IMG/VR virus record: IMGVR_UViG_3300012953_000012
Span: 32,001 to 96,000 of that record
DNA length: 64,000 nucleotides
From: a virus
Lineage: Duplodnaviria; Caudoviricetes
Reading direction: 5' to 3' (one strand)
Shown here: positions 5,406 to 54,482 of the stretch, piece by piece
Layout of the letters: each line of letters begins with the position of its first letter
Numbering within the stretch: the stretch's first letter is position 1
Notes under the pieces: model-generated
Databases searched by the model: none
The model's input: only the letters and a program-made list of their open reading frames with translations
Told to the model about the DNA's origin: nothing
Position numbers and translations under genes: made by a program

Positions 5406-6352
5406 ACAGCACTTCTACACTTCGACGCATCATGCGCTCCGAGGGCCTGATCAAGACCGCTGGCAGCGGTGCCAGCAACGAGGCGTACCTCGACTCCATC
5501 AGCAGCCGGATGAAGGACAAGATCCTCAAGGGCATCGCCAATCACTACGGCGTCTCGACCCAGAGGATGTACAAGGAACTGATCGACCCGGACGCCGAGG
5601 CTCTGTACGAGTACATCACCGATGGCTCCCGGATGCAGGTGTACCGCGACATGAAGTCGGGACGGTTCGCCAGCACCCGCAAGGTTGCTCACCGTCCGCA
5701 CTTCGTGACCCCGAAGGAACTCCGCAACGGCCATGCGTTCATGACCTACAAGATCGACGCCGGGAAGAACAACAGCAAGTTTTACGAAGGCAAGATCACA
5801 CCAGCCGATGACGGCACCTGGTCCTACCTGAAGCGTTGGGGTGCCTTGACGGATGCTGGTGCCAACCACCCACGAGTGGATGGTGAGAAGTACGACAAGC
5901 ACGGACTCACTGAGTCCCAGGCACAGCAGATGCTCGACAAGGAGAAGAAGAAGCGCCTCGGACCCCGTGGCTACTCCGACGCCATGAAGTCACGACCGCT
6001 GGGTCAGTACCCTGTGGGCCTCCAGCGCGACGTGGGCTTTGGGTGGGGCAAGCAGGAGATCACCAACTGCGTCCCGGCGCTGCGGAACATGTCGGACCTG
6101 ATCGTCACCGCCCTGGCAGAAGTCCAGCAGGATGATCCTGGCGACCTTCTCCGTGCCCTTGAGAGCCTTGCCGTACTCGTAGGGGACCTCCCCAGGAGCA
6201 GCATGGCGAAGGAGATCGCGAAGAAGATGCGGCCTCCCGTCCAGCGCATGAAGAAGAACCCCCGCTTCATCGACGACCCCAACCGCACGACGAAGGAGTT
6301 GATGACCCTCAAGCGGTACATCGACCGCCAGACCAAGGAGTGCAACGTCTGA
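5402..6352 (+). CDS. WGR-domain-containing protein
   Basis: NNSKFYEGKI...YLKRWGAL...AQQMLDKEKKKRLGPRGYS matches the WGR pattern. Confidence 0.65.
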   Translation: MNSTSTLRRIMRSEGLIKTAGSGASNEAYLDSISSRMKDKILKGIANHYGVSTQRMYKELIDPDAEALYEYITDGSRMQVYRDMKSGRFASTRKVAHRPHFVTPKELRNGHAFMTYKIDAGKNNSKFYEGKITPADDGTWSYLKRWGALTDAGANHPRVDGEKYDKHGLTESQAQQMLDKEKKKRLGPRGYSDAMKSRPLGQYPVGLQRDVGFGWGKQEITNCVPALRNMSDLIVTALAEVQQDDPGDLLRALESLAVLVGDLPRSSMAKEIAKKMRPPVQRMKKNPRFIDDPNRTTKELMTLKRYIDRQTKECNV

Positions 6353-6368
6353 TTTCTCGGCCACCGAG

Positions 6369-6418
6369 ACGACGAAAACGCGCCCCCGCCGACCCGAAGG
6401 TCAGTGGGGGCGCGTTCG
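6369..6418 (-). terminator. Intrinsic terminator, conserved family copy T1
   Basis: AACGCGCCCCC (6377-87) pairs with GGGGGCGCGTT (6406-16); minus-strand GACC-TTCG-GGTC tetraloop followed by TTTT; lies between convergent genes. Confidence 0.8.
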
Positions 6419-6421
6419 CGT

Positions 6422-6577
6422 TTAGGCGTTTCGGAAGCGTCGTCGGTCTTCGCGGCGAAGGCGACGGCGAGCAAGGCGTCGGGTGACACGTTTGCTGGGG
6501 TGTTCGGGAATGAGGATGCAGTAGTGTCCACGTTCACCGTAGGTGTCGCGGACGTTGAGCCGTTTGAATCGGTCCAT
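6422..6577 (-). CDS. Small Arg-rich protein, 51 aa (MDRFKRLNVRDTYG...RRLRREDRRRFRNA)
   Basis: GGAGAG SD before ATG; read manually. Confidence 0.6.
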   Translation of the reverse strand: MDRFKRLNVRDTYGERGHYCILIPEHPSKRVTRRLARRRLRREDRRRFRNA

Positions 6578-6594
6578 GTCTCTCCGGGTTGGGG

Positions 6595-6795
6595 TTAGCG
6601 GCCAGTCTCGTCTACGCCAGCCTCGGCAAGCGAGGTAGCGAGGAGCATTTCGGTGGGGGTGAGGACGAGGTCGTTGCCGTCCTCGTCAAGGATGTGGGTG
6701 GGGAACCACTGTCCCCCTCGCTGGGCGAAGGCGACAGTGATGTCGATGATCCCGCCCGGCGTGGTGCGCTGGACGGTCACGGTAGTGTCGGCCAT
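6595..6795 (-). CDS. Hypothetical protein, 66 aa (MADTTVTVQRTT...)
   Basis: GGAGG SD before ATG at 6795; phage-like codon use. Confidence 0.7.
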   Translation of the reverse strand: MADTTVTVQRTTPGGIIDITVAFAQRGGQWFPTHILDEDGNDLVLTPTEMLLATSLAEAGVDETGR

Positions 6796-6824
6796 GGGGG
6801 CCTCCTGTGATGGGGTTGAAGGGA

Positions 6825-7394
6825 TCATGCGACAGTGGCCCACTGGTTCCAGTAGTCCACGCCGCGCTGGTACTCGGCGGTGTCGAGGGGTTTGCCGTTG
6901 CCGCCCTGCTCGATGCCGAGGGCGTTCCGCATCTGGGCAGCGGGGCCGAGCGGGGCCGCTTCGGGAGCGGTCGCGCTGTTGATGGAGACGATGCCCCAAT
7001 CGGCGTCGATCTCCATCCCTTCCTTCTCCAACTGCTCGCGGGAGTAGAGGACAAGGTGCAGCCACTCGCACCGCTCGACTCGCACGGAGCCAGCGGGGAA
7101 GTGCCGGGTCAGCACAGCCAACTCGCCTTCGCGGCGAGCCTTGTACTCCGTGCGGAGAAGGGCTGCGTTGTACTTGGTGATCTTGGCAACGCCCGACAAA
7201 GCGTCGGTGAAGTTGCGGACGAAGACGTGGCGGACGAAGCCCGCCGTCTCGCCCTCAATGAAGTGACCCTCGTTGAGAGTCGCGCCGTAGACGAGGGCGT
7301 CGAAGTCCTCGACGGTGTGGCTGGCGATCTTGGTGCCAGCGAAGGTGGGGTCGAAGTGCCGACCTGCGGCGAAGGAAGTGGTCTGGATGCTCAT
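6825..7394 (-). CDS. DUF3228-family protein
   Basis: Motifs HVFVRNFT, LLRTEYKARREGELAVLTRHF, LVLYSREQL, WGIVSI, MRNALGIEQGGNG, DYW recalled as the DUF3228 signature. Confidence 0.75.
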   Translation of the reverse strand: MSIQTTSFAAGRHFDPTFAGTKIASHTVEDFDALVYGATLNEGHFIEGETAGFVRHVFVRNFTDALSGVAKITKYNAALLRTEYKARREGELAVLTRHFPAGSVRVERCEWLHLVLYSREQLEKEGMEIDADWGIVSINSATAPEAAPLGPAAQMRNALGIEQGGNGKPLDTAEYQRGVDYWNQWATVA

Positions 7395-7445
7395 GTGTGT
7401 CCTTTGGCCCTGTAGGGCACTGGGGGTGGGTGAGGGTCGCTGCCC

Positions 7446-7481
7446 TCACCTACTTACGGAAGCAGGGGGAAGTTTTAACGG
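7446..7481 (-). promoter_or_regulatory. Class I promoter-like repeat P1 (leftward)
   Basis: CCGTTAAAA-CTTCCCC-CTGCTTCCGTAAGTAGGTGA on minus strand. Confidence 0.85.
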
Positions 7482-7501
7482 CGACCCCCGAAAAAAATCC
7501 C

Positions 7502-7537
7502 CCGTTAAAACCGTCTGCTGCTTCCGTAAGTAGGTGA
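7502..7537 (+). promoter_or_regulatory. Class I promoter-like repeat P2 (rightward)
   Basis: CCGTTAAAA-CCGTCTG-CTGCTTCCGTAAGTAGGTGA; A-tract 7491-7497 upstream. Confidence 0.85.
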
Positions 7538-7589
7538 GGACCCGCACCTTCGCGCCCTCAAACCCCCAGAGCCCCATAGGAGGCTGACC

Positions 7590-7988
7590 ATGACCATCGT
7601 ATCGTTCGACTTCGACGACACGCTGGCCTGGACGCGAGTGATCCGAGACGCTGACGGCGACATCGAGGACACCGTCCCTGCTGGCGTCAACCCTCACATC
7701 ATGCCGCTGCTCCATGCAGCCCTCGACCGTGGCGACGAGGTTCACATCGTCACGACCCGCCACGCCTCTCGCTGGCGCGACATCACCCTGGCCGAACTTC
7801 GTGCCTGGGGTGTGCTCGACCGCCTTGCAGGCGTTCACTTCACCGATGGTGAGTGGAAGGCGGAAACTTTGTCCACGCTTCGGGTAGAGGTACATCACGA
7901 TGACGACCAGGATGAACTGGATCGTCTGCCGCCCGGATGCAGTGGTGTCCTGGCACCTCTACACCCGTCCTGGGGAGGTGTGCGATGA
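7590..7988 (+). CDS. HAD-superfamily phosphatase
   Basis: N-terminal VSFDFDDTL (DxD), IVTTR, K and HHDDD motifs; SD GGAGG. Confidence 0.8.
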   Translation: MTIVSFDFDDTLAWTRVIRDADGDIEDTVPAGVNPHIMPLLHAALDRGDEVHIVTTRHASRWRDITLAELRAWGVLDRLAGVHFTDGEWKAETLSTLRVEVHHDDDQDELDRLPPGCSGVLAPLHPSWGGVR

Positions 7989-8665
7989 CTGAGGAAGAGG
8001 CCAAAGCCAGACTGCTCCCCCCTGTGCAGAAGGGTGCTTTGGTGGTGGTCGTCCGTGGCCGCAAGGTGCCACGCGGCACTATGGGCGTGGTGAGGTGGGA
8101 AGGTGACGGTGACTACGGCCCCCGTGTGGGCCTCGCTGTCGAAGGCGAGGACAAACTCGTCTACACCGCCTACAAGAACGTCGATGCTGTGTACCCTGGC
8201 CTGATGCCTGGCCAGGATCCCGAGGGCGGTTGGGTCGAACTCTACGAGCGTGTGCAGCGGGAGCAACGGCTTCCGATGAAAGGGCACCGAATCGAGCACC
8301 GAGGCTCAGGCATGAAAGGCAAGGTCTTCTGGGCGCAGGGGAGCCGTATCGGCTTCAAGTCCGACAAGGGGGTCACCAACTGGTCCGACGCCCACGAGGT
8401 CTGGATGTTGTCGGGACCCATGGAGTGCCGTTTGGATTACGTCACCGAGGTTCCCGCCGTGCCTGCATTACGGGTCCTCCTTGAAGTAGACGCCCGGTCG
8501 CTTCCGGCCCCTTTCAATGAGATCCAGTACCTGGACCCCCTTCCCCAGGGCGGCTACCGAGGTTTGAATGGTCGCCAAGAGTACGTCGCCACGTTGCCTG
8601 AGGAGGTGGCCCAGCAACACCTTCCGGTTGTGGGCCACCTCCAGGATTCCGGGCGTCCTCGGTAG
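7985..8665 (+). CDS. Hypothetical protein with SH3/KOW-like repeats
   Basis: KGALVVVVRGRKVPRGTMGVVRW and GMKGKVFW patterns; ATGA overlap. Confidence 0.65.
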   Translation: MTEEEAKARLLPPVQKGALVVVVRGRKVPRGTMGVVRWEGDGDYGPRVGLAVEGEDKLVYTAYKNVDAVYPGLMPGQDPEGGWVELYERVQREQRLPMKGHRIEHRGSGMKGKVFWAQGSRIGFKSDKGVTNWSDAHEVWMLSGPMECRLDYVTEVPAVPALRVLLEVDARSLPAPFNEIQYLDPLPQGGYRGLNGRQEYVATLPEEVAQQHLPVVGHLQDSGRPR

Positions 8666-8695
8666 CCCGCCTATCGCCCCTCCACAGTCGGAGGC
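8661..8695 (+). promoter_or_regulatory. Class III motif (GGTAG-CCCGC-CTATC) plus SD-covering hairpin CCTCC/GGAGG
   Basis: Motif 8661-8675; arms 8679-8683 and 8690-8694; ATG 8700. Confidence 0.7.
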
Positions 8696-8699
8696 TTTC

Positions 8700-8843
8700 A
8701 TGGGCTGTGGCTGTCGCAAGAAGAACGGGGCGAAAAACCCAACGGCAATCAAGAAATCTGCTCCCCAGATTCGGGTTGCCCGTGCGATCCCTCGTGAGCC
8801 TGTGACGAAGCGACTCCCCCGAGGGACGCGGGTGCGCCGATGA
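8700..8843 (+). CDS. Small basic protein, 47 aa, starting MGCGCRKK
   Basis: GGAGG SD; first gene after a class III motif. Confidence 0.65.
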   Translation: MGCGCRKKNGAKNPTAIKKSAPQIRVARAIPREPVTKRLPRGTRVRR

Positions 8844-8887
8844 CGTGCCTATGCAACCGGGTACTGTGGCCCTTGATGGAGACTTGA

Positions 8888-12478: not shown

Positions 12479-12481
12479 ACC

Positions 12482-20558: not shown

Positions 20559-20723
20559 ATGCACCACATCTCCATCCACGACCTGAAAGGCGATGAGCGC
20601 CGCCGCTGGGCAGAGGCCCGCAAGGCCGCCTATCGCAAGGTATTGCGGGATCGGGGGGCGTCTGACCAGCAGCGCAGGGAAGCCCGAGCCAAGTTGAACG
20701 CCATCGACCGCCCTTCCCGGTAG
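20559..20723 (+). CDS. Small basic helical protein, 54 aa (MHHISIHDLKGDERRRW...)
   Basis: Fills the gap between structural genes; read manually. Confidence 0.55.
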   Translation: MHHISIHDLKGDERRRWAEARKAAYRKVLRDRGASDQQRREARAKLNAIDRPSR

Positions 20724-20733
20724 TCCGGCTATC
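20719..20733 (+). promoter_or_regulatory. Class III motif (GGTAG-TCCGG-CTATC)
   Basis: Exact spacing match; 58 nt upstream of the 1785-aa structural gene. Confidence 0.7.
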
Positions 20734-20790: not shown

Positions 20791-23700
20791 ATGGCCCAAG
20801 ACTTCGGAAACGGCGTGAGCCGCACACTGTCGGCCATCCAGCGTCAGTTTCAGACGGTGGTTTGGCAGGCATCAAAGCCCCCGCTCGACTCCGAACTGAA
20901 CCTGATGTCGCAGATGGAGATGAACCGCCTGGCTGAGGTGGTGCGTTCCCAGATGCACTCAGGGTTCCTGTTGGACCCGATGAACGCGGATGCGGACTTC
21001 GTGACCGGCAAGGACTGGTCAAACTGGTTCAAGTTGGGGCGTCCCTCCACCAACGAGGTTGCGCCCATGATGTGGGCCAACGTCAATGGTTGGCTCGTGC
21101 CTGTCACGGGAACTGGGGTGAGCGACGGTGATCCCAGCAACCGGGTCAACCTGTTCCAACCCCCGGCGACCGAAGCGCGGGTGGACTTTGTGTTCCTGGA
21201 GGTCTGGCAGGCCCAGATCGCTCCGAACCCCAGCACGGCAGGCAAGCCCTCAGCCAGCACCATCTACAAGTACGGCAACACTCAGTTTGGCGGGACCAAC
21301 TTCCCGGACGAGATGAAAGACCCCACCATGGGGTTTGAGACCACTGAGCGTGTCCAGATTCAGTACCGCATCCGCACCTACGGCTCGGGAACCGGACTCG
21401 GGGACGCTGTGGACCTCGCACAGTACCCGGACGGCCTCGATGATCCCAACGTGCTCGCACAAGGGGCGATGGCCTCTCCTGTGGTTGGCTACGTCTGGTC
21501 CAACATGGGTGACGAGTTGGGCGACCGTGGACTCTGGCGTTCCGGGACCGGCGACAGCAACAGCCGGACAGACCTCGGCACAGTGGACGGCTACGTCTAC
21601 GCCATTCCGATCTGTGCAGTCTTCCGCCGCAACAGCAGCGCCTTCGTTGCTCGCACTGCTTCGGGGAATGCCAACCAGAACGGCGGCCTCGACAGAAACC
21701 CAGTTTCCGGGACCATCACGGATCCCCTGCAAGCCACCCGGACGTTCACTCCGGTCACCCTGACCAACGCCCTGGCGGCAGACACGACAGGCGTGATCTC
21801 AGTCACCGGGCTGCCCAACTCGGGCCTCGACAACGTGAACATCAACTGGTCCTCCATGGCTCTGGAGATCGGTGGCGAGATCATGGTCATCCAGGCAGTC
21901 AACGCCGCGACGGGCCAGATCCAGATCGCCTCGACCACAGACACCACGAACCCGTGGACCGGCGCACTCCTCACGCCCACGCCAGGTCGGGGGCGCTTCG
22001 GCACCCAGGCCGCGCCTCATGTGGCAGGCAGCCAGATTCACTTCTTCAACTTCCGCCCCGACGCACGCTTCTCAGACGAAATCGCAGCGAGCGACATCCT
22101 GGATCTCCGACGCGGGGTCACAGGTGGCGAGTGGTCTTACGAAGACCTCCTGAAGCACAACCTCGGTCGAGTCCTTGATGGCTCCCTCAAGTCCTCCTAC
22201 AAGCAGGGCAGTGGGACGAACACACAAGGCACTGAGATCATCGAAGTGGACTCCTACATCGGCAAGTACGCCTCCCCCATCCCGAACCAGACGGAGCACC
22301 TGGACGGCTTCGACAGCATCCGTGAGGTCTTCTCGGACAGTGCGGTCGTCCAGAACGATGTCAGCATCTTGCTGAACGTCGTCGGAAACACCCCCACGCT
22401 CTCAACGAACAGTTGGGGCGCTGGCGCACCCTTCACGGTGAGCGGGAGCGTCCCGGCAGGCACGGGATCATCGTGGGAGAACGGTTCGATCATCGAGATC
22501 GACATGGGCAGGGCACGCGAAACCTCCGACACCGAAGCCCCCTTCATGCGCTTCGTGGCCCCTCAGGAGTACTGGCTGTCTCGTGACGAGATGATCGTGC
22601 TCGGGGGAGCACTTCACGGAAGCCAGTCTCCCTTCCTCATGCGCTTCGTTGGTGAGGATGCGGCAACCGGAGCCACGGAACCCTATGCGTGGGCACTTCC
22701 CTCCCCTGCCTATGGGTCGGCGGCGGTGAACCACCCCGGCCCCATGTTCCCGATGGTGGATGGGGGCTTTGAGTACCCTTACATCGTGCTCGGGGGTCTG
22801 GCCAACGGCACAACCCTCCCGGCTGATTCGGCTGCTGTGGTCACGAGCGCCCTACCTGCGGCGGTGGTTGCTCTCGGCATCCCGGCTCTCGACTTCGACT
22901 CCTCTGCCCCTGGTAGCAACTGGTACAACACCAGTGTCGATGATCTCAGCACTGAGGGGATCACGAACCTGCTTCTGCATGGCACCCGGAACCTCTACGA
23001 CCTGCTCACCAACGGCGGGCGTGATCCGTCCGGGGCGTCATCTGAGTTGTACATCACCATGGCCGACTCTACGAACCCAGGCAACAACGGTTGCTTCCGG
23101 GTCATTGGAGCCGGAACCGCAGGCTACACCTGGCACAACGCGCCGGACGGGCAGAGCATTGTCGTCGAGCGTGTGGGAGTCCTCCCAGACGCGATGGTCC
23201 CCACTGCCCAGGTGACGGTGAAGTTCCGCACGCAGTACACGAACACGGCGGACACTGGCATGGCCATTGTCCTCACGGACCTCGCAGGCACTCTGGGAGG
23301 CGCGGCGAACCCATGGGGCGCTGCACCATCCATCTCCGACTCGTACAACGGAGACATGGTGCTCGACACCAGCCTCCTCTACGGCCCTTCACGAGGGGCG
23401 ATGGCTCGGGTTGCTACGCGCCTCGACCGCTTCGCGGCGGTCGCTCCTGCCAGCACGGTCCTTCGTGAAGCCCCTGAGAATATCGACCCCGACAGCGTGG
23501 AGTTCCGCACCCGGACAGGCGTGCCGCAGGACGAGTACTACTATCCAGCGCAGCCCGTCCCCACCTGGAACCGTCTGCCCAGCCTGGGAGCACATGCCCC
23601 CAACGCACCCGCCTACGGTGAGGGTCGCTACAACTTTGAGTCCCGTCGTGAAGCAGAACTCTTCGCAGACGAGGGTTCCAAGTCGGTCATCTTCCGCCCC

Positions 23701-26148
23701 TTCCAACAGTTGGACATGTCCTGGGCGTTGAAGGTCACGGGGACCGATCAGTTGCCTTCCAACTACGACGCTTCCGGCGGCAGCGGCCCTGTGATGGGTG
23801 GCGCTGGTCTGTTCCAGTGGGGGTCCATTATCGGACTGCCTCCTGAGTACATGCCTCGCTTTGGCCGCCAGGACATCCCTGTGCGGGCCACGGCGGGAAC
23901 GAGCGGCCCTTACATCGGCATCAACCACCTGTTTGGAGACTCCGAGACCGCCACCGACGTGGTCCGGGATGTCATCGGTGGAGCCAACACCACGGCCCCT
24001 GCGGTGACCAACTCGATCCTGCGGATCAGCACTGCCCTGGGCATCGACTACGGCGGTTGGAGCGTGGCCGACTCATCCTTCCAAGGACGGCTCTACGAGG
24101 ACGTGAACGCACGGTCTTCGGACATCAACAAACCTCTCCGTGGCATCCAGTTGCCTCCTTACGTCGGCATCGCTCGGGTCTACGGCGTCTACGAGGCTGC
24201 GGACTACGCAGCCAACGGTGGCGCGTGGGAGGACGAAGGCTTCACCTTGAAGACCTCGGGATCCATCGGGACCAACCTGCTCCGCACGGATGCGGACAAG
24301 CAGACGATGTACATCATCAAGGACGGTGCAGCCGATGTCCTCGCAGGACACGACGCGCATACCTACCTGGTCCCTGAGGAAGCCATCGACATCCAGAAGA
24401 TCGCCGGATGGACCTCGGCCTCCACCTTCGCGACCTACGACTACGTCGTCGAGGTCGCCGTCTTCGCGTTCGCAGAAGGCTTCATCAACAAGAACAACTA
24501 CGTCCTGCTCCGCTCGGACGCTGCTGCTGGCCTGGCAGCCAACCTGCTTTCAGGCGGGCGCATGATCATCCCAGCAGCGATGCAGTCCTCTGTGTCGAGC
24601 GGAACAGACGGCTACTCGGCCTTCACCCGGACGGTGTACCAGGGTGACCCCTACATGACCCGCAACGGCCCGACCTTGCAGACGGCGGACTACCAGAACC
24701 GCTATGGCAAGGTCCCCGTGACGGATGCCAACGCGGTCAACGCACCGCTCCAGCAGTACGACACGGACAATGGCCAGATCCCTGAGATCCCCAACGCCCG
24801 CGCTCTGGAAGTGCTGGCCACGGTGGATTTCTGGACCACGCTGGGCACCGGCAAGATGGGCGGTCCTGTCTACACGAGCACCCCCACTGATCCCGGCTAC
24901 CTGACCGCTTCCGGGACTCGCCTCCCGGAGTCTGCGACCCAGAACCCGTGGCAGCCCCACGCCCGAGCATTCTCGACCCCCCAGCCCGCCAGTGCAGGCT
25001 ACGCCTCGATGGGTGTGGTCATGGACAACCGCGCGGTGATGGTTGACCAGGCTGTCGTGATCCGGCGCGGCGACAGTGTGGCTACCTTCGCCTACGCCTC
25101 GTTTACGGGAGCAACCGTCCAGGAAGACATGTCTCTTCTGGCGGCCCTCATCAACTCGTCCGACATCGCGTGGGCGGAAATCGGGGTCTGGGCAGCCGCC
25201 GCAGGACCGACCTGCCGCATCTACGCTCGGATGCCCGGCAAGGAGGGAAGCGAGACCGTCGTGTCGCTGACTCCCGCGACGGGCACCCCGACTGTCATGA
25301 CCGGGCTCCGGTTGACCGTCAACACCACCTACGGTGCGTTGCCAGTCACAGGGTCGGTCCAGACTGTTGCAGCCCTTACCGGCTACACAGAGGTCCCTGC
25401 CAACGCCAAGCAGACGCACAGTGCCCCGACCCCAATGCGCCTCACCGGCATGACTGACCGACTCCCGCTCGGCATCCTGGTGAACGATTCTGACTTCATT
25501 GGCGAAGACCCGCTCCGCAAGGGAATGGCCTACGAGGTCCGCAGCGGTGGTGGTGACCAGTCCACGCAGGCTGTGACCACCTTCTCGGCAGAAGGCCAGG
25601 AGAACACCCGCCTCAGTGGTCCGGGTGGGATCATGGGCATGGCTGATGGGGCAATCCTTCAATACACCGCCTACAACGCTGCCTCAGCCCCCGATGGGGT
25701 CAAGCAGTTCCGCCTCTACCGTGGTGGTGGCTCGGCCTACGTCGTGTCGCCCCAAGCCGCTGGCGGCCCTGTGGACATCATCTCGGGCGGTTTCAGTGAG
25801 GGTGATGATCCTGTGCTGAAAGGTGCTGCTCTGGTCGGTCGGGCCTACCTGGTCCGCAACGGCTACGAGGAAGCGTTCACCGGCAACGTCACTCGGTCCT
25901 ACGGGGACGAGGTACAGATGGTCATTGTGACCAACGCGGTGTACGGCGAGGGTCTCGACTGCGACAGCGGCTACACCCTCGATGGGATCATCAGCCCCAC
26001 CGACTACGGCAAGGGCTACGCGGCATCTGACCGATACCGTCTGGAAGGCAAGCCCCTGGTCAAGAGCCGGGCTGCTCTCCCTGACCCCAACATCCCGCTG
26101 GCTCCGTACCCGCCGGAAGACCCCGCAGACGACGATCCGTGCCCGTGA
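20791..26148 (+). CDS. Large baseplate/tail structural protein (paralog of 8888..12478)
   Basis: KPPLDSELNLMSQ, RVDFVFLEVW, TERVQIQYRIR, DLGTVDGYVYAIPICAVFRRN, DILDLRR blocks. Confidence 0.75.
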   Translation: MAQDFGNGVSRTLSAIQRQFQTVVWQASKPPLDSELNLMSQMEMNRLAEVVRSQMHSGFLLDPMNADADFVTGKDWSNWFKLGRPSTNEVAPMMWANVNGWLVPVTGTGVSDGDPSNRVNLFQPPATEARVDFVFLEVWQAQIAPNPSTAGKPSASTIYKYGNTQFGGTNFPDEMKDPTMGFETTERVQIQYRIRTYGSGTGLGDAVDLAQYPDGLDDPNVLAQGAMASPVVGYVWSNMGDELGDRGLWRSGTGDSNSRTDLGTVDGYVYAIPICAVFRRNSSAFVARTASGNANQNGGLDRNPVSGTITDPLQATRTFTPVTLTNALAADTTGVISVTGLPNSGLDNVNINWSSMALEIGGEIMVIQAVNAATGQIQIASTTDTTNPWTGALLTPTPGRGRFGTQAAPHVAGSQIHFFNFRPDARFSDEIAASDILDLRRGVTGGEWSYEDLLKHNLGRVLDGSLKSSYKQGSGTNTQGTEIIEVDSYIGKYASPIPNQTEHLDGFDSIREVFSDSAVVQNDVSILLNVVGNTPTLSTNSWGAGAPFTVSGSVPAGTGSSWENGSIIEIDMGRARETSDTEAPFMRFVAPQEYWLSRDEMIVLGGALHGSQSPFLMRFVGEDAATGATEPYAWALPSPAYGSAAVNHPGPMFPMVDGGFEYPYIVLGGLANGTTLPADSAAVVTSALPAAVVALGIPALDFDSSAPGSNWYNTSVDDLSTEGITNLLLHGTRNLYDLLTNGGRDPSGASSELYITMADSTNPGNNGCFRVIGAGTAGYTWHNAPDGQSIVVERVGVLPDAMVPTAQVTVKFRTQYTNTADTGMAIVLTDLAGTLGGAANPWGAAPSISDSYNGDMVLDTSLLYGPSRGAMARVATRLDRFAAVAPASTVLREAPENIDPDSVEFRTRTGVPQDEYYYPAQPVPTWNRLPSLGAHAPNAPAYGEGRYNFESRREAELFADEGSKSVIFRPFQQLDMSWALKVTGTDQLPSNYDASGGSGPVMGGAGLFQWGSIIGLPPEYMPRFGRQDIPVRATAGTSGPYIGINHLFGDSETATDVVRDVIGGANTTAPAVTNSILRISTALGIDYGGWSVADSSFQGRLYEDVNARSSDINKPLRGIQLPPYVGIARVYGVYEAADYAANGGAWEDEGFTLKTSGSIGTNLLRTDADKQTMYIIKDGAADVLAGHDAHTYLVPEEAIDIQKIAGWTSASTFATYDYVVEVAVFAFAEGFINKNNYVLLRSDAAAGLAANLLSGGRMIIPAAMQSSVSSGTDGYSAFTRTVYQGDPYMTRNGPTLQTADYQNRYGKVPVTDANAVNAPLQQYDTDNGQIPEIPNARALEVLATVDFWTTLGTGKMGGPVYTSTPTDPGYLTASGTRLPESATQNPWQPHARAFSTPQPASAGYASMGVVMDNRAVMVDQAVVIRRGDSVATFAYASFTGATVQEDMSLLAALINSSDIAWAEIGVWAAAAGPTCRIYARMPGKEGSETVVSLTPATGTPTVMTGLRLTVNTTYGALPVTGSVQTVAALTGYTEVPANAKQTHSAPTPMRLTGMTDRLPLGILVNDSDFIGEDPLRKGMAYEVRSGGGDQSTQAVTTFSAEGQENTRLSGPGGIMGMADGAILQYTAYNAASAPDGVKQFRLYRGGGSAYVVSPQAAGGPVDIISGGFSEGDDPVLKGAALVGRAYLVRNGYEEAFTGNVTRSYGDEVQMVIVTNAVYGEGLDCDSGYTLDGIISPTDYGKGYAASDRYRLEGKPLVKSRAALPDPNIPLAPYPPEDPADDDPCP

Positions 26149-26162
26149 TCGAGGAGTGAGCC

Positions 26163-26696
26163 TTGACCCCACTACAATCACTTGAGCATCTGACAGACAA
26201 GGTTTGGGACTCCTGGTCCGGCGAACGCCTCTCTGGCGGCGTGGGGGAGTTCGACTCCTTCCACGCTCTCGCGTATGACCTCGGGATGGCGATGAACCTC
26301 TCCGACGACATCCCCCTGAGCAACGCTGGCGCGAAGATCTCGCGTTCCGTCCAGTCGTTGGAGAAGCAGACCCGCTCGTGGCGCATGGCTGTGAACCTCT
26401 CTCAAGAGGGGCACGAGATGGACATCGGCAGGTGGGTTGGCGATCTGGAGAAGACGAAGGGCAAGATCATCGCCATCCAGACCGCTCTGGAGAGAGCGGA
26501 GCGGAAGATGCCTTCTGCTCGGGCATCCGGCGAGTACATGAGTTCCGGCCTGGATGCCGACGACTTCAAGAAGGCGTATCTGGCAGGAGAGCACACCAAG
26601 AAGTTGATCGACGAGGCCGTCAAGGCGGCCAGGAAGGTGCCGCGCACCGCCTCGGTGAGCCGCGTTGCCTTTCGCTACGCCTCCAAGAGCATGTGA
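26163..26696 (+). CDS. Helical hypothetical protein with C-terminal RTASVSRVAFRY motif (candidate internal virion protein)
   Basis: Coiled-coil-like; follows the structural gene in the same unit. Confidence 0.6.
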   Translation: MTPLQSLEHLTDKVWDSWSGERLSGGVGEFDSFHALAYDLGMAMNLSDDIPLSNAGAKISRSVQSLEKQTRSWRMAVNLSQEGHEMDIGRWVGDLEKTKGKIIAIQTALERAERKMPSARASGEYMSSGLDADDFKKAYLAGEHTKKLIDEAVKAARKVPRTASVSRVAFRYASKSM

Positions 26697-37664: not shown

Positions 37665-37679
37665 GGTAGTCCTACTATA
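37665..37679 (+). promoter_or_regulatory. Class III motif (GGTAG-TCCTA-CTATA)
   Basis: Exact spacing match in an intergenic gap; TAG here is not a stop codon. Confidence 0.65.
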
Positions 37680-45541: not shown

Positions 45542-45611
45542 ATTCGCCTCCAACGATGGTTCACCGGACTATACCGGCGACACATCGTTGGAGGCGAATA
45601 GAGGGGCTACC
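45542..45611 (-). promoter_or_regulatory. Class III motif (GGTAG-CCCCT-CTATT) plus 17-bp hairpin covering the SD of the lipoprotein gene
   Basis: Motif 45611-45597; arms 45583-45599 and 45542-45558 perfectly complementary; GGAGG 45551-45547. Confidence 0.8.
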
Positions 45612-45994: not shown

Positions 45995-46017
45995 GAACAC
46001 GGTCGCTGCGGGACGCA

Positions 46018-46514: not shown

Positions 46515-46600
46515 GAAGGAGGCCAAAAAAAGATTCGGGTGCCTGTGAATGCCCATGGTCCCTCGGTTTTCGGGAGGTAGGGAAAAAACTCGGAGGGTGG

Positions 46601-46636: not shown

Positions 46637-46685
46637 CACCCCCTCTCCCCTTCCCCGTGCCGCCCAGCGGCCAACCGGAGCACCC

Positions 46686-47458: not shown

Positions 47459-47488
47459 TCCCCCACCCCACACGCCAGGAGGTATCCC

Positions 47489-48352: not shown

Positions 48353-48624
48353 TGTCTGCTGTTCAACCCCTCGTGGCTGTAGCCACGATCCCCGTCCCGA
48401 CCGGCTGGCGGTTCGTCCTGGAGGACGACATGCCCAGCATCGAGCGTGACGTGGGAGACTTCACCCTCACCGTTGGTTTGGACGACGGCAAGTGGCGCTG
48501 GTGGCTCTGCCCCCGTGGCCACAGCGGTGCCGTCCCAAGCCCCGGCAGCGGTGCGGACATGGTGGACGCCATCTGGCAGGTCTTCGACGCCCTCGCCCGC
48601 CGCCTTGATGGAGGTGGAGCATGA
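48349..48624 (+). CDS. Hypothetical protein
   Basis: GGAGG SD, GTGA overlap. Confidence 0.6.
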   Translation: MMSAVQPLVAVATIPVPTGWRFVLEDDMPSIERDVGDFTLTVGLDDGKWRWWLCPRGHSGAVPSPGSGADMVDAIWQVFDALARRLDGGGA

Positions 48625-48839
48625 CCCGCTGTGACCGCTGCCCGAAGCCCCTCGGCGTCCATCGGGTGTCGTGGTTCAACCTCGACACCATCTGCACTCG
48701 CTGTCAGGCCCAGGAAGAAGCCCACCCCGACTACGCCTATGCCCGCGATGTAGAACGCAAGCGGGTACAGGTTGGTGACTACAACTTCGTTGGAGTCGGC
48801 TGGCCTGGAGTCAACGGCAGGGTGCTCCGCACCCGGTAG
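48621..48839 (+). CDS. Conserved small phage zinc-binding protein (CDRC...FNLDTICTRC...GDYNF.G.G)
   Basis: Recognisable phage family pattern. Confidence 0.65.
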   Translation: MTRCDRCPKPLGVHRVSWFNLDTICTRCQAQEEAHPDYAYARDVERKRVQVGDYNFVGVGWPGVNGRVLRTR

Positions 48840-48872
48840 ACGGGCTATCGCCTCCGACTGTTCGGAGGCGAT
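48835..48872 (+). promoter_or_regulatory. Class III motif (GGTAG-ACGGG-CTATC) plus 11-bp hairpin covering the SD
   Basis: ATCGCCTCCGA-CTGT-TCGGAGGCGAT (48847-48872); GGAGG 48864-48868. Confidence 0.8.
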
Positions 48873-48876
48873 GCTC

Positions 48877-50046
48877 GTGAGCCGTGAGATCCAGATAGGA
48901 CACCCGTGCCCGCACCTCATCATTGAGGAGGTGGTCGCGTTAGGGGCGGATAAGAAATCACTGTCCACCCGTGCGCCTGTGTCATCAGCCAACAGCGTCA
49001 GGATCCTGGTCAACAATCAGGTCTATGTGCCGCCTGGGGGCCTCTACTCCAAAGCCATTCTTTCGGGAAGCGTGGGTCCTTACCGCATTGAGAAATGCGT
49101 GGGGTTCGCAGGACCGGAAGGCAACACTCTCACCGTGACGGCCTCGCAAGGGACTGTGACCGTTGACCTCCCCCTGTCGCAACGCCTCAGCGTGGATCGG
49201 CTGGTCCGCGCCTTGAAGTTGACGCCTCTGGATGGTCTGGTTGGGATCACCAGCGTCAACGGCTCGGTGACGTTCACGGACAACCACGCCACAGGCTCGG
49301 AGTCCGTGGTCAAGGTCAGCGGCGACGGTGCCGATTCTTTGGGTTTCGTTCAACGGGGGGCTCGCGGGCGAGAAATCTATCCGGGGTGGACCCTGGTTTC
49401 GCGACCGGACGTGCTTCCGAGTGCTGATCTGCGCGGGCTGTTCCCTGTTCCTGCCCGGTATCCTCGCTTCAAGAAGCCGGTTCCCAACGGGTCGGACTTC
49501 AAGGTCACCTACACCGCGATGCCCGAGAGGTGTCCCCGGTGCCAGGCCACCTACATCGAGAACGACTACCGCTTCAACCAGATGGGCGAGGTACGGACCA
49601 TCATCAACGAAGACCTCCTCTATCAGGCGTGCTTGAAAGCGATCCTGACGAGGAAGGGGTCGAACCCGTACCACACAGGCTATGGATCCTCCATCATGAC
49701 CCGTGTCGGGCGCAAGCGGATGGCAGCAGCCGCTGGAGCCATCCGGCAGGACATTATCCAGGCACTCCGAGGGGTCCAGGGCATTCAAGGAGGTCAGCGG
49801 AAGTTCCAGCAGGTGACTGACCGAGAGAGGCTGTACCGCGTCGAGGATGTGTCCGTGACCCCCACGGATGATCCCACGGTCGTGCGTGTCGGTGTGGTCG
49901 TCGTCAACGGCAGCAACCAACCTGTATCGCTGAACATCGTCTACTCGGCTCCGGGGGCGATAGCCCTCGCTGGGTCCAACGGTCAGTCCCTCGGGGTCTC
50001 GGGTCTGTCGCAATCCCAAACACGACGCTTCCTGATGGACGGGTAG
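48877..50046 (+). CDS. Baseplate wedge protein with C-terminal gp25/W-like domain
   Basis: LYQACLKAILTRKGSNPYHTGYGSSI...IIQAL...RVEDVSV...VVRVGVVV is gp25-like; precedes baseplate J. Confidence 0.75.
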   Translation: MSREIQIGHPCPHLIIEEVVALGADKKSLSTRAPVSSANSVRILVNNQVYVPPGGLYSKAILSGSVGPYRIEKCVGFAGPEGNTLTVTASQGTVTVDLPLSQRLSVDRLVRALKLTPLDGLVGITSVNGSVTFTDNHATGSESVVKVSGDGADSLGFVQRGARGREIYPGWTLVSRPDVLPSADLRGLFPVPARYPRFKKPVPNGSDFKVTYTAMPERCPRCQATYIENDYRFNQMGEVRTIINEDLLYQACLKAILTRKGSNPYHTGYGSSIMTRVGRKRMAAAAGAIRQDIIQALRGVQGIQGGQRKFQQVTDRERLYRVEDVSVTPTDDPTVVRVGVVVVNGSNQPVSLNIVYSAPGAIALAGSNGQSLGVSGLSQSQTRRFLMDG

Positions 50047-50055
50047 AGGTAAGGC

Positions 50056-53000
50056 ATGTCAGACACATTGATCTACAGCCCGGACGGCAAACTCACGCAA
50101 ACGGTCAACTTCAGCACCACGCGGCAGACCCGATTCTTTGAGGGGGTCCTCCCTCAGGACGCTGCGGAAGTGCTGGTCTCCATCAACGGGAGTGGGTTTT
50201 CCAGTGATGAGAGCCTGGTCCAGTGGGGGGACGGGGTGTGGACCATCCCCAGCCCGCTCTATGAGCCGGACGGGTTGGTCCTCCTGGAGGGAGTCAACAC
50301 GGTCGAGATCAAAGCCATCCTCGGCAACGGCTCCGCGACCCCGACAGCCAGCGCGACGGTTCGCCTCACCACTGACCAGGATGTGCTCCTGACCGTGGGG
50401 TCACCGACCAACATTTCCATGACGCAGGAGAACGACACCGTCACCGTGCGGGCCGAAGCCCCTGAGACAGCAGACGGGTTCCAGGGCATGAACTACTACG
50501 CCTCGGCAAACGCCGGGGGAGGGGTCAGCGGCTACACCCGGATCAACGTGTCGCTGGTGGCCGATGGCCTCGCCCGGCAGGAGGTCCAGCAGTTTGCCGC
50601 ACAAGCGGTGGACCTCCCCGTGCAAGTGGATGCTGACGGCAACCCGACAGCCGATCCGATGTACTACCGCCTCACAGGCCGACAGGAGGACGAAGACGAA
50701 GGGGTGCTCGTCACCGACTACAATGAGCGGTACGAGGTCCCTGAGACAGCCCGGACCATCCGCTTGAACATGACCTTGGACCAGGTGCGGGACGTGGTCT
50801 CCTACGACTTCACCCACAACCGCTCAGGCTCCCCGCAGTCCACCCCGGCGACCGTCCGGGTGAGTGAGTTTGTCAACCTGAGCCCCTCTTCGCCCCTCTA
50901 CTACGTCGTCACAGCAGTCTTCTACGACCGGGTGACGGACACTGAGTACGAGTCGGCATACTCAGCCGAGGTTGTAGGCCAGCCTATGCAGGTGACGACG
51001 GCCATCGGATCGATCCCAACGGTCTCTCGTCAGAACATCGTCACGCAGTTCGTCAGGGCCATCTTCCGATCCAACCCTCAGATCAAGGTCGAGGCCGGGT
51101 CAGTGCTCCGGGACACGGTGATCGATCCGTACTCCTCCGAGAGTGAGCGGCTGCGGTTCCTGCTGGATTTCTACCAGCGTGCGAGAACCCCGACACTACT
51201 CCTCCAGATCGATGACCCCACCGCCAGTGGGACCAGCATCCCTGTGGCACAGTCCTCCTACAAGCAAGCACTCCAGTCGGCGCTGTACCTGGACAATGCC
51301 CTCGCCACACAAGGGCTGATTGACTCGGCCTTTGAGTCGTATGCCAGCAACTTCGGCCTTCAGCGGAAGTCCGGGATCGGTGCGCGTGGTGAGGTGCTGT
51401 TTTTCACCCGCACCAAACCACAGTCCTCCCTCGTGATCCCGTTGGGGACGATTGTGTCTGGCGGGGGTTCCAACTTCGCCACCTCAAGGGCCGCATCCAT
51501 CTCGTCGGCCCAGATCGCTTCCTACTACAACCCGGTCAACGGCTACTATCAGATCTCAGTGCCGGTCCAGGCCACGACAACAGGGTCGAACACCAACGTC
51601 GGCACCGGCCAGATCACGAGCGTGATCTCCACCCTCGGTGTCTCCCTGTCCGTCACCAACCTGGCAGCGATGATTGGGGGGCGGGATGGGGAGTCGAACC
51701 TCTCATTGACGGCGCGAGTCCAGAACCGCCTGGCCTCTGTGGACTCGGGAACGGAGCGTGGGTACTTGCAGACAGCAGCGGACGTTCCGGGCGTGGTCAA
51801 GGCCAATGTCGTGGCAGCGGGCAACCCCCTCATGCAGCGCGATCTCAATGCAGACGGGCAACACATGGGCGGCAAGGTGGACATCTGGGTGCAAGGCACC
51901 AATCTGGCATCGTTGACTGACAACTTCGCCTTCACCTTTGAGATCGCCCAGGACATCCAGTTTCAGATCCTCAGTGTGCCGGACCTGACGTTCCGGGCGT
52001 TGGACCCTGACCTGTCATCGGCTGACCCCATCGTTGAGATGCTGGATGACCCGGACATCGGGTATGAGATGAGAAACGCATCCACGGGCGAGGTCTTTGA
52101 TCTCGCTGGGGTCAAGGTGCTTTCCTATGACACCATCCAGTTGGACACCTCGGTCTCTCAGCCAGCCGTGGACCTCACCGACGTGGTCCTGGCCTCGTAC
52201 CGGCGGCGAACAGGAAGTAAGTTTGTCCTCCTGCGGCAGCCTGCTGAGGAGATCGTCTCTGTCGTGGGGTCGGTCAGCGGGACTCTCCCTACTGATTCCT
52301 ATCTCCTGAACCACCCCGATGCCCCCCTCGCTTACGGGCGCTCCACCCTGGCCGAGGACTCCCTTCAGATCGACGGTTACAGGGACGCGAATGGCAACAC
52401 CATTCCCAGCGGGGACAGCATCACGGTGACGGACGAGCCTCATGTCATGGTCGGCCAGTACGCTGAGTTCCTGGACAGCCTGGGGGCCAACTACTTGACC
52501 ATCGTGGTCAAGAGCGCGGACGGACTCATCACCTACAACGGACCCAACGACCCTTCCGGTGCGCCGGACTACCAGGTGACCCTGGGGACGCAGACCGTAG
52601 CAGTGAGCATCACCCGGACAGACGCGAGCACGATCCCCAACGGGGCTTCCGTGCTGGTCTCCTACGAGCACGACGAGAACTTCACCGTCACCTACACTAC
52701 GAATCTCATTGTCTCCACCACCCAGAACGCGGTTGACTTGCAGAAGCACGCGACCGCTGATGTAGTGGTGAAGGACGCCATCCCGGCCCCTCTCGACATT
52801 GAGGCAACGGTGGTCGTGCGGCAGGGGCGTGAGACCTCAAAGGTGGACGCGGACCTGCGAACCAACATGGCCACCTTCTTCACCAATCTGCGCCTGGGTG
52901 ATCCCGTCCGGCAGTCGGACATCATCGACGTCATCGAGCAGACCAGTGGAGTCTCGTATGTGGTGGTCCCCCTGAACCTGTTGGCCCGCTCGACTGGAAG

Positions 53001-53517
53001 CACAGTCGTTCGGGAAGACATTTCCACGGACACCGTGTCGGAGAGCGTCCTGCTGACGTCCCTCTCGTCCAACCAAAGCATCGTCTACATCCTCACTGAG
53101 AACCTCTCAGCGGCTACCGTCAACGGTGGTGGGGGAGCCGGTGAGTTCCGGGCCGTCTTCCAGGACGAGGTCGAGATGAACCTGCTTCCGGCAGCCGCCA
53201 CACTGGTGACACTGGGCACGGAACCCGGCTCATCCTACATCGTCGGAAGTGATGGTGTGGTGATCGAAGGGTACTCGGATGACGAGACCTTGAAGACGCA
53301 AGGCTACGTTACGGACAAGGCCATCACCCAGCAGCGCAGGGCACTGACCGCGAACCGGGTGTTGGTATCTGTCACCCCTGGTGATGCTCCCACAGAGCAC
53401 CAGTACGCTACCACCTATGTGGTGGGGGAGGGCGCTGGAGCCAGGAACGTCGAGCCTGGTGGTGCGGAGTACTGCACCGAAGGCTTCCTCACATTCACCT
53501 ACGACGAGGATCGGTGA
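50056..53517 (+). CDS. Baseplate J-like (gp6/gp47-type) protein with N-terminal Ig/Fn-like extension
   Basis: GSVLRDTVIDP, ARGEVLFF, VIPLGTIV, VPVQATTTGSNTNVGTGQI, GGRDGESNLSLTARV...SGTERGY. Confidence 0.88.
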   Translation: MSDTLIYSPDGKLTQTVNFSTTRQTRFFEGVLPQDAAEVLVSINGSGFSSDESLVQWGDGVWTIPSPLYEPDGLVLLEGVNTVEIKAILGNGSATPTASATVRLTTDQDVLLTVGSPTNISMTQENDTVTVRAEAPETADGFQGMNYYASANAGGGVSGYTRINVSLVADGLARQEVQQFAAQAVDLPVQVDADGNPTADPMYYRLTGRQEDEDEGVLVTDYNERYEVPETARTIRLNMTLDQVRDVVSYDFTHNRSGSPQSTPATVRVSEFVNLSPSSPLYYVVTAVFYDRVTDTEYESAYSAEVVGQPMQVTTAIGSIPTVSRQNIVTQFVRAIFRSNPQIKVEAGSVLRDTVIDPYSSESERLRFLLDFYQRARTPTLLLQIDDPTASGTSIPVAQSSYKQALQSALYLDNALATQGLIDSAFESYASNFGLQRKSGIGARGEVLFFTRTKPQSSLVIPLGTIVSGGGSNFATSRAASISSAQIASYYNPVNGYYQISVPVQATTTGSNTNVGTGQITSVISTLGVSLSVTNLAAMIGGRDGESNLSLTARVQNRLASVDSGTERGYLQTAADVPGVVKANVVAAGNPLMQRDLNADGQHMGGKVDIWVQGTNLASLTDNFAFTFEIAQDIQFQILSVPDLTFRALDPDLSSADPIVEMLDDPDIGYEMRNASTGEVFDLAGVKVLSYDTIQLDTSVSQPAVDLTDVVLASYRRRTGSKFVLLRQPAEEIVSVVGSVSGTLPTDSYLLNHPDAPLAYGRSTLAEDSLQIDGYRDANGNTIPSGDSITVTDEPHVMVGQYAEFLDSLGANYLTIVVKSADGLITYNGPNDPSGAPDYQVTLGTQTVAVSITRTDASTIPNGASVLVSYEHDENFTVTYTTNLIVSTTQNAVDLQKHATADVVVKDAIPAPLDIEATVVVRQGRETSKVDADLRTNMATFFTNLRLGDPVRQSDIIDVIEQTSGVSYVVVPLNLLARSTGSTVVREDISTDTVSESVLLTSLSSNQSIVYILTENLSAATVNGGGGAGEFRAVFQDEVEMNLLPAAATLVTLGTEPGSSYIVGSDGVVIEGYSDDETLKTQGYVTDKAITQQRRALTANRVLVSVTPGDAPTEHQYATTYVVGEGAGARNVEPGGAEYCTEGFLTFTYDEDR

Positions 53518-54482
53518 TGGGCGACGAACTTCATGTCTACGACTTCGACGGGACTCTGTTCCGCAGTCCCCACGCCCCAGCGGTGTGGGACGGCGATTGG
53601 TGGAGTGATCCCGCGAGCCTGCTGCCTCCGTGCGTACCTGAGAAGCCTGGCCCAGCCTGGTGGATTTCTCCGACCGTGGGATCAGCCAAACAGTCGATCT
53701 CCAACTCGGATGTCTTCGCCATTATGATGACCGGACGCCGGGACGCATCTGCCTTCCGCTACCGGGTGCCGGAACTGCTGAAGCAAAAGGGACTCAACTT
53801 CGACGCGGTGCATCTGGCGCAAGGGTCAGGCGACTCGCTGATGGGCAAGATCAAGACCATCAGCAAGTACCTCGCCCGTTACCCGAACATCGACACGGTG
53901 CGGATCTGGGACGACCGGGGGAGCCACCTCCGCAAGTTCAAGAGCCTCCTGGAGCGTGAGGGCTACACTGTCCACATCGACCATGTCCGGGCGAAGTCAG
54001 CCGATCCGCTGTGCAGCGAGATGGACTTCGCTCAGAAGGACACTCCGAAGCAGAAGCCTTCCTACATCGGGGTCTTCCTGGACGCCCGAAGCAAGGCTGC
54101 TCTCGTGAATGAATACAACCTGGCCCACGACAAGGTGAAGACCGACCATGTGACCCTGGGGTTCAAGTTGACCCCAGACCTGGAAGCCATGATCGGGCAG
54201 CCCGTCAAGATGCAGGTGGTCGGCTACGCTGACGATGATCTCGGACAGGCGGTCGCCGTGGACCTTCCGGGCGATGTCCCCTTCGCGAAGAAGGGCATCC
54301 CGCATGTGACCCTGACGCACGACAGGTCAGTGGGGCCGAAGTACAGCAACCAACTACTGGCGGGTGGTCACGACGGAAAGCGCGGACCTGCCTTGACTGG
54401 GATCATCGACACGTTCCCACGGAGGCTCACTCGCAGAACGGCATCGGCGGCTCGGGTGGCTGCACTGCATAAGCGTCGTTGA
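53517..54482 (+). CDS. HAD phosphatase (Swiss-army-knife RNA-repair type) fused to 2H phosphoesterase
   Basis: VYDFDGTLFRSP, MTGR, IWDDR; two HxT motifs DHVTLGF and PHVTLTH. Confidence 0.8.
   Translation: MGDELHVYDFDGTLFRSPHAPAVWDGDWWSDPASLLPPCVPEKPGPAWWISPTVGSAKQSISNSDVFAIMMTGRRDASAFRYRVPELLKQKGLNFDAVHLAQGSGDSLMGKIKTISKYLARYPNIDTVRIWDDRGSHLRKFKSLLEREGYTVHIDHVRAKSADPLCSEMDFAQKDTPKQKPSYIGVFLDARSKAALVNEYNLAHDKVKTDHVTLGFKLTPDLEAMIGQPVKMQVVGYADDDLGQAVAVDLPGDVPFAKKGIPHVTLTHDRSVGPKYSNQLLAGGHDGKRGPALTGIIDTFPRRLTRRTASAARVAALHKRR

Follow-up and report, generated by a model that had tools for sequence, protein, structure and literature searches.

The window analysed here is a stretch of 64,000 nucleotides, bases 32001-96000 of the 205,564-bp virus record IMGVR_UViG_3300012953_000012, which has 62% G+C and is rated 46% complete by CheckV. 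We describe a short peptide shared by otherwise unrelated proteins of this phage, which an initial annotation of the window had written as R-x-A-S-x-x-[RK]-V-A and taken for a signal that loads diverse cargo into the head. All three peptides named in that annotation are encoded in frame where it placed them, and an all-against-all BLASTP comparison found no other similarity among their carriers. The first firm copy, P-R-T-A-S-V-S-R-V-A-F-R-Y-A-S-K-S-M (26640-26693, plus strand), forms the C-terminal tail of a 177-residue helical-bundle protein of no known family (26163-26696, plus strand), with the nonapeptide RTASVSRVA beginning at 26643, 17 residues ahead of the stop of its open reading frame (ORF). 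This carrier has no Pfam, PHROG or PDB-fold match; Foldseek of its model against the PDB returned generic helical bundles only, and tblastn against 50,697 phage records gave no match. Its gene directly follows a 1785-residue ORF at 20791-26148. The second firm copy, R-R-T-A-S-A-A-R-V-A-A-L-H-K-R-R (54432-54479, plus strand), is the C-terminal tail of a 322-residue phosphatase-like enzyme of the HAD_SAK_1 family (53514-54482, plus strand; Pfam PF10307, E 2.8e-20), the 'Swiss Army Knife' RNA repair family. Here RTASAARVA starts at 54435, 15 residues ahead of the stop, and the gene comes after a Baseplate_J gene (50056-53517) in the same unit. A fourth copy occupies residues 3-11 of a 152-residue ORF outside the window.

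The third window peptide, R-F-A-S-T-R-K-V-A (5663-5689, plus strand), sits at the junction between an N-terminal module and a WGR-like domain in a 316-residue protein (ORF 5402-6352; the WGR match, at residues 115-154, is below threshold). In this copy Lys replaces the Arg before V-A, and no aromatic-Ala pair comes after it (H-R-P-H-F). Nor is the peptide kept in the syntenic relative IMGVR_UViG_3300025141_000016 (G002 hereafter; 297 kb, capsid protein 94% identical), which was reached through homologues of the carriers: the orthologous module there reads Q-R-L-A-A-S-K-N-A-A-G-Y-A. Since this copy lacks the downstream half, conservation in G002 and an exact copy of the promoter-like motif described below, the three original copies become two firm ones (26643 and 54435) and one doubtful one, which is either a decayed copy or a chance match, chance having about an even share. 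Two partial look-alikes listed in the same annotation, IKTA-GS and TRQA-AS, do not count as copies, as they match merely the four-residue pattern [KR]-x-A-[SADG].

As a side observation, the N-terminal module of the WGR-like protein recurs in a 476-residue protein of G002 (L038:824-2254), where it is fused to a Fusello_VP2-like domain rather than to WGR. It is flanked there by two copies of a second tag of these genomes, a helical hairpin of about 35 residues (the long tag), and P-R-T-A-S precedes the second of them, which suggests that the short and long tags are related.

The short peptide might recur through chance or composition alone, the genome having 62% G+C and abundant Arg, Ala, Val and Ser. 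Across a proteome set of 190 ORFs (60.6 thousand residues), called with a codon-usage model over the whole 205,564-bp record, R-x-A-S-x-x-[RK]-V-A is found four times against an analytic expectation of 0.017; the mean of 300 residue shuffles is likewise 0.017. Because the pattern had been defined post hoc, we ran an unbiased look-elsewhere control over every nine-residue pattern with seven fixed positions common to at least three proteins. Three such patterns exist in the real proteome and none in 12 shuffled proteomes; RTAS..RVA is one of the three, and the other two belong to the long tag. When six positions are fixed, there are 47 patterns in the real proteome and 4-16 in the shuffled ones, so the original nine-residue pattern is less exceptional than its raw expectation implies. 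Furthermore, the similarity runs past the nine residues into x-[RE]-[YH]-A, and RVA..YA occurs four times against about 0.075 estimated from residue frequencies. That the similarity extends downstream speaks independently against a random origin.

Across all 297 kb of G002 we counted 37 instances of R[VI]A..[YFWH], where 5.9 were expected and no shuffle gave more than 15, and a stricter core searched as a DNA pattern gave 16 matches and its reversed control none. A position-specific scoring matrix built from six copies recovered nothing beyond its own training set. When the N-terminal form of the tag was searched as a DNA pattern in IMG/VR, six loci were found, all of them true copies and together representing two proteins. 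The same pattern gave 14 matches in JGI metagenomes, three of them true (one on a 552,571-bp contig) and the other 11 short off-frame chance matches. A strict DNA pattern for R-T-A-S-x-x-R-V-A-x-R-Y-A, which is too narrow to judge rarity, met the near relative alone in IMG/VR. What speaks for chance is that six-position patterns common to three proteins do arise in shuffles and that the WGR copy is not conserved. Set against this are the four copies where 0.017 were expected, the lack of any seven-position pattern in 12 shuffles, the independent downstream extension, the six-fold excess in G002, the six true matches out of six in IMG/VR and the retention of the tag in orthologues, and we regard chance as refuted, or at best very improbable, as the source of the tag as a whole.

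The copies in G002 redefine the motif. A logo of 36 copies reads K/R/P, x, A/P, S, A/P, x, R, V, A, x, R, Y/F/W/H, A/L, with Ser at -3 in 29 of 36, Arg at +4 in 23 and Lys or Arg at -6 in 13; Pro is often found a few residues past the core. The shared peptide of the initial annotation is thus real, but its conserved core is S-x-x-RVA-x-R-[YFWH]-A, and judging from the sequences the full element is [RK/P]-x-[A/P]-S-x-x-R-V-A-x-R-[YFWH]-A. With R-V-A-x-R-Y-A as the core, the R-x-A-S of the original pattern becomes its upstream edge, the flavour of linker seen in internal and C-terminal copies. In the AlphaFold2 model of the 177-residue protein, a helical bundle (residues 3-156, mean predicted local distance difference test score, pLDDT, 84) is followed by a loop at 157-164 (K-V-P-R-T-A-S) and then by a separate short helix at 165-176 of lower confidence. 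The 152-residue carrier is modelled poorly (mean pLDDT 40.8), and a helix at residues 7-17 was the sole indication used from it. The conserved S, V, Y and A, R, R map to adjacent faces of the helix. From these models the tag is likely a flexible linker containing a Ser, probably the helix N-cap, followed by a basic amphipathic helix of 10-12 residues, after which a linker with Pro often closes the element.

It could be argued that the shared element is DNA, such as a recombination linker, promoter or terminator that is translated incidentally, and the ends of genes and the boundaries of modules, where copies do lie, are the places to expect recombination joints. This reading is contradicted by the codons. 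Compared in pairs, the copies have an identity of 0.60 at codon positions 1 and 2 and of 0.32 at position 3, every synonymous codon is used under R-V-A (Arg by five different codons), and the copies are in frame within coding sequence without exception. Selection therefore targets the peptide and not the DNA, and a DNA-level origin is next to impossible. The consensus sequences of familiar peptide signals were also set beside the logo. A basophilic-kinase site (R-x-x-S) and ClpX degrons were dropped on that comparison; a PP1-type RVxF motif was dropped for the wrong aromatic spacing, a Tat signal for having neither a twin Arg nor a hydrophobic stretch, and clamp-binding motifs for the DNA polymerase and helicases being free of the tag.

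The tag is conserved within families while the proteins around it diverge. In the 177-residue family, eight homologues down to 59% identity all retain the tag's R, T, A, S, V, R and A. The short form of this protein ends just past the tag, and a form of about 290 residues (P0003, P0007, P0009) adds a C-terminal domain of about 115 residues that has no counterpart anywhere in the 205,564-bp record. In these three homologues the 'C-terminal' tag is therefore a junction tag. The 152-residue family keeps M-[IN]-R-T-A-S-x-x-R-V-A-L-x-[YH]-A, again down to 59% identity. The tail of the HAD_SAK_1 enzyme is kept in the 54%-identical orthologue of G002, whereas in a 53%-identical orthologue of a different phage lineage the stop codon follows K-R-A, at the very point where the tail would start. 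The tail-less orthologue (L015:2860-3957, from a lineage of lower G+C) has instead a Lys-rich helical N-terminal extension of about 45 residues. The gene after it (L015:3954-4529) resembles, as we take it, a putative Fe/Mn superoxide dismutase with a C-terminal extension of its own, and the two extensions may represent a different tag system on the same cargo. In the family of a 326-residue carrier, the relative's version has 850 residues and three tag copies, at residues 12, 106 and 491, another has 515 residues, and the modules between the copies differ or have been swapped.

Positions within proteins are equally uneven. Among 35 copies in G002 (one doubtful match having been removed from the 36 of the logo), RVA falls in the first 15 residues in nine cases (1.3 expected) and in the last 25 residues in six (2.2 expected), and the other 20 are internal. 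The nine N-terminal copies all lie at residues 7-14, and giant proteins carry two to five copies each. The linker follows position as well, with P-S before the core in six of nine N-terminal copies and in two of the 26 others (p = 0.0012), and the form [KR]-x-A-S in nine of the 26 internal or C-terminal ones. Most carriers in G002 have no orthologue in the window's record and lie in variable islands beside carriers of the long tag. Enrichment, conservation and position together bear out the portable tag proposed in the initial annotation, in that a peptide under selection is placed on unrelated proteins at termini and module junctions in this phage and its relatives, and conservation in orthologues holds for all but the WGR copy.

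What the tag is attached to gives an indication of its role. G002 has about 24 carriers in 297 kb. Pfam identifies ART-PolyVal twice, once in a 445-residue protein with an N-terminal tag and once in a 1247-residue protein whose domain lies between two tag copies, and further carriers have a PolyA_pol-type nucleotidyltransferase, a Peptidase_C39_2 or a HAD_SAK_1 domain. Weak matches to NUDIX, ParB_N and SWIM were also found. Carriers with a match have one each, and the majority of modules have none. Polyvalent proteins are predicted to be packaged in the capsid, injected and proteolytically processed, with T4 Alt as the prototype of a packaged ADP-ribosyltransferase (PMC5512222). By their domains, then, the carriers look typical of injected polyvalent effectors. 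None of the replication and transcription core proteins of this record or of G002 is tagged.

The 152-residue carrier stands in a different context. In each of three loci (L001:5535-5993, minus strand; L012:3001-3456; L013:3001-3456) it lies about 37 nt behind ribonucleotide reductase genes, which are class II-like in this record and in L012 and class I NrdA/NrdB in L013, and a conserved gene of about 115 residues comes after it. Its closest homologue is on a 258-kb Tara scaffold. The protein contains no cysteine and is therefore not a redoxin.

Many of these genes share a promoter-like motif, GGTAG-N5-CTAT. The window holds five exact copies (0.05 expected), the record 19 and G002 29. Those of the window lie at 8661-8674, 20719-20732, 37665-37678 and 48835-48848 on the plus strand and at 45598-45611 on the minus strand. 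The motif is mostly found 40-50 nt ahead of start codons, and it precedes head-module genes, giant proteins, the baseplate unit, all four long-tag carriers of this record, and the 152-residue carrier as well as one of 593 residues. The copy at 20719-20732 heads the unit 20791-26696, which comprises the 1785-residue protein (start 72 nt downstream) and the 177-residue carrier, and the copy at 48835-48848 heads the baseplate unit that ends with the HAD_SAK_1 carrier. Most units with tag carriers are headed by the motif or lie directly behind it. GGTAG-N5-CTAT thus behaves like a phage-specific promoter, probably a late one. The initial annotation had placed all three carriers, as putative late proteins, in units headed by a class III motif. 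GGTAG-N5-CTAT does head the 177-residue and HAD_SAK_1 units, but no exact copy precedes the WGR gene. The term 'late' is an inference from this motif, which the carriers have in common with head and baseplate genes, and it sits less well with the 152-residue family and its ribonucleotide reductase neighbours.

The head module of this record comprises a head maturation protease, an acidic scaffold-like protein and an HK97-fold capsid protein; portal and terminase genes were not identified in this 46%-complete fragment. The protease is recognised by one PHROG match and has no match among PDB sequences, Pfam or NCBIfam. The scaffold-like protein (genome 4560-6074, outside the window) is a very acidic protein of 504 residues encoded between the protease and capsid genes. 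The longest ORF of the capsid gene, 6841-7833, starts 40 codons too early, as each of the 120 listed homologues, 289-293 residues long, begins with the Met of M-S-V-x-N, at genome 6961. In this record, G002 and the uncultured phage LR745208.1, the tetrapeptide [KR]-x-A|[SAG] is conserved by position in all three proteins: in the protease near residue 25 and past the catalytic region, in the scaffold near residues 11-18 and just ahead of the C-terminal tail, and in the capsid protein as K-L-A|A-S near the N-terminus. These positions are kept even though the head-module proteins other than the capsid protein are only about 40-67% identical among the three genomes. The scaffold-like protein is also enriched in the pattern (12 against 3.2, and 12 against 4.3), as are several tag carriers. 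In this record it has 12 [KR]-x-A-[SADG] sites, K-K-A-S repeats among them, where 3.2 are expected. Each scaffold site has a short basic helix before it and an acidic run after it, and in the scaffolds of G002 and LR745208.1 the sites are kept but the intervening sequence is not. Since [KR]-x-A|S of the tag matches these positionally conserved sites, it is probably a prohead-protease site. Elements like the tag helix also occur in head proteins: a conserved 191-residue head-module protein has an RVA-x-A-[YF] helix in three of three genomes, and the C-domain of the protease has a conserved Y-R-[VT]-A-L.

The first gene of the G002 head module (L023:14816-18583) encodes a 1255-residue protein with HAD_SAK_1 and the catalytic core of a eukaryotic-type topoisomerase IB (Topoisom_I) and without a tag copy; it is possibly a packaged topoisomerase, and its positional equivalent in Tunturiibacter phage Tunturi_5 carries the annotation 'DNA ejection protein'. 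A partial counterpart lies at genome 58-1998 of our record, where the first ORF had been considered as a portal and was rejected as such on account of its relationship to this HAD_SAK_1 and type IB topoisomerase protein.

The match between linker and head-protein sites also allows a reading in which the tag addresses nothing and is purely a processing signal, that is, an extended site or exosite by which the maturation protease splits multi-domain precursors. This would agree with the copies at module junctions, with the two to five copies per giant protein, with [KR]-x-A-S ahead of nine of the 26 internal or C-terminal copies, and with the positional conservation of the tetrapeptide in protease, scaffold and capsid protein. 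On the other side, conservation is strongest 3-9 positions beyond the putative cut and falls on a helix face, which would be unusual for a protease subsite. N-terminal copies, at residues 7-14, mostly have P-S (6/9) for A-S, and cutting there would be pointless, while at C-terminal copies there is nothing downstream to free. We therefore consider a pure processing signal improbable.

We instead favour, at no better than an even chance, a portable and position-independent docking tag that acts as a dock-then-cleave capsid address. In this model the cargo would be made together with the virion proteins, the tag helix would dock it on a conserved component of the assembling head, either the scaffold core or the inner shell, and the docked cargo would be enclosed and later delivered with the DNA. 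Once the cargo has docked, the prohead protease would probably cut at [KR]-x-A|S ahead of internal and C-terminal tags, a step proposed because the three head proteins carry this tetrapeptide at conserved positions; the cut would separate the modules of multi-domain cargo or release cargo from its anchor. Taken by itself the cleavage step is rather doubtful. Read from sequence, tagged proteins would be predicted to bind a head component and to be packaged, cut and ejected. The virion link of the proposed head-loading tag is supported by context only, through the promoter-like motif, the carrier domains and [KR]-x-A|S in head proteins. Modelling the capsid protein (48-row alignment) in complex with the C-terminal end of the 177-residue carrier, residues 141-177, gave a score of 0.00 without controls, which is uninformative either way. 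In a preprint, many non-structural enzymes were reported in particle proteomes of phage G, where contamination is possible (10.1101/2024.12.16.628780).

Several observations weigh against this address model. The 205,564-bp record contains only about five copies of the tag, albeit as a 46%-complete fragment, and [KR]-x-A-[SADG] is low in information. The 152-residue family has a metabolic context beside ribonucleotide reductase genes, though in this record a promoter motif of its own precedes it. No cleavage site recurs consistently downstream of N-terminal copies, and an A|S cut in the 152-residue protein would free five residues, so that the logic of cleavage is not uniform. Finally, there is the distribution of the tag. 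The capsid-protein family comprises 2070 clusters, of which the best 120 are at least 87% identical, and in the phage-record collection the capsid relatives are LR745208.1 (86%), Tunturiibacter phage Tunturi_5 (50%) and Bacillus phage G (41%). In none of these three does the tag rise above control level. It is therefore confined to a sub-clade, and its absence from LR745208.1 at 86% capsid identity means that a conserved receptor on the capsid protein is not an obvious fit.

The same absence suits an alternative in which the helix binds a hub outside the capsid, such as a chaperone or AAA+ translocase, a host-takeover complex, a phage-made compartment or, for an Arg-rich helix, nucleic acid. 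Position independence is a property of clamp- and hub-binding short motifs as well, the 152-residue carriers consistently neighbour ribonucleotide reductase genes, and other carriers lie beside replication genes. This alternative is harder to square with untagged replication and transcription core proteins, with carriers that are variable accessory genes bearing effector-type domains, with a promoter-like motif common to carriers and head or baseplate genes, and with an upstream element that matches sites conserved in head proteins. We rate a non-capsid hub as rather unlikely.

The source phages are a small group of uncultured megaphages related to phage G. Extending the address model to this group, we tentatively suggest, as a possibility short of an even chance, that a sub-clade of about 450-550 kb encodes its packaged and injected proteome by S-x-x-RVA-x-R-[YFW]-A docking and [KR]-x-A|S cutting, with about 24 or more cargo proteins per genome, ADP-ribosyltransferases, nucleotidyltransferases and RNA-repair enzymes among them. 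Such a scheme of docking and then cutting would parallel that of the herpesvirus scaffold tail. As part of this proposal, the docking helix would also be built into the core 191-residue head protein, and the protease C-domain would have a motif resembling it. Should the tag prove to be an address label, sequence alone could reveal which proteins these uncultured giant phages inject, and tagged proteins of no known function would become candidate effectors of host takeover or anti-defence. It would also mean that cargo loading by a short peptide, detailed only for T4, arose in a different form in the phage-G lineage, one that is position-independent, multi-copy and governed by another cleavage rule. 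For loading foreign proteins into large capsids, a tag of 13 residues that functions at either terminus would be a convenient tool. Moreover, the positional conservation of [KR]-x-A|[SAG] provides a testable cleavage rule for a protease family without a Pfam model.

In T4, the capsid targeting sequence (CTS) of IPI-III and Alt directs proteins into the scaffolding core of the prohead (PMC3012670; PMC5512222). The tag described here is similarly a short peptide on otherwise unrelated, fast-evolving accessory or anti-defence proteins, an ADP-ribosyltransferase included, and nine of its copies are N-terminal leaders at a fixed distance. In contrast to the CTS, an N-terminal leader of about 10-20 residues, only nine of 35 copies are N-terminal, both firm window copies are C-terminal, and several copies can occur in one protein. 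There is no sequence resemblance, and no Leu/Ile-x-Glu site lies beside the copies, the candidate site being [KR]-x-A|S. As to the precedents invoked by the initial annotation, the T4 CTS and the head proteases of jumbo phages, the tag resembles neither the CTS nor the Glu-specific sites of phiKZ-like phages. Furthermore, T4 has a handful of carriers and G002 about 24, whose packaging is predicted.

A second comparison is with polyvalent proteins (Iyer, Burroughs, Anantharaman, Aravind 2017). The carriers share with them ART-PolyVal, HAD_SAK, nucleotidyltransferase and peptidase domains, and more weakly ParB_N and NUDIX, and some, of 850-1519 residues, may string such domains together. Unlike polyvalent proteins, many carriers are single-domain or of unknown fold. 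Iyer et al. 2017 define domain architectures, and a term search of that paper found no short inter-domain tag.

The long tag is the closest relative within these genomes. Both tags occur in the same genomes, in variable islands and with the promoter-like motif, and both open with [KR]-T...A-[AS] and continue as R-[VIS]-A-L-(I)-R-[YL]-A-S. The short tag differs in being a single helix, in which about 13 residues are conserved and which no second helix (P-x-G-S-x-E-R-x-x-I-L) follows, and in being limited to a narrower sub-clade.

At the M site of the herpesvirus scaffold, with the consensus (V/L/I)-x-A|S, an assemblin-type protease cuts between Ala and Ser and so removes the short C-terminal helix, docked on the capsid shell, that directly follows. 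In the phage copies, the residue two before Ala is Arg or Lys in 13 of 36 and otherwise variable, rather than V/L/I, the tag is also N-terminal or internal and sits on cargo rather than on the scaffold alone, and, unlike assemblin, the protease family is known here from its PHROG match alone. Even so, both C-terminal window copies have the same layout as the herpesvirus M site and tail, and the phage scaffold-like protein, like the herpesvirus scaffold, has a conserved [KR]-x-A|[AS] just ahead of its C-terminal tail.

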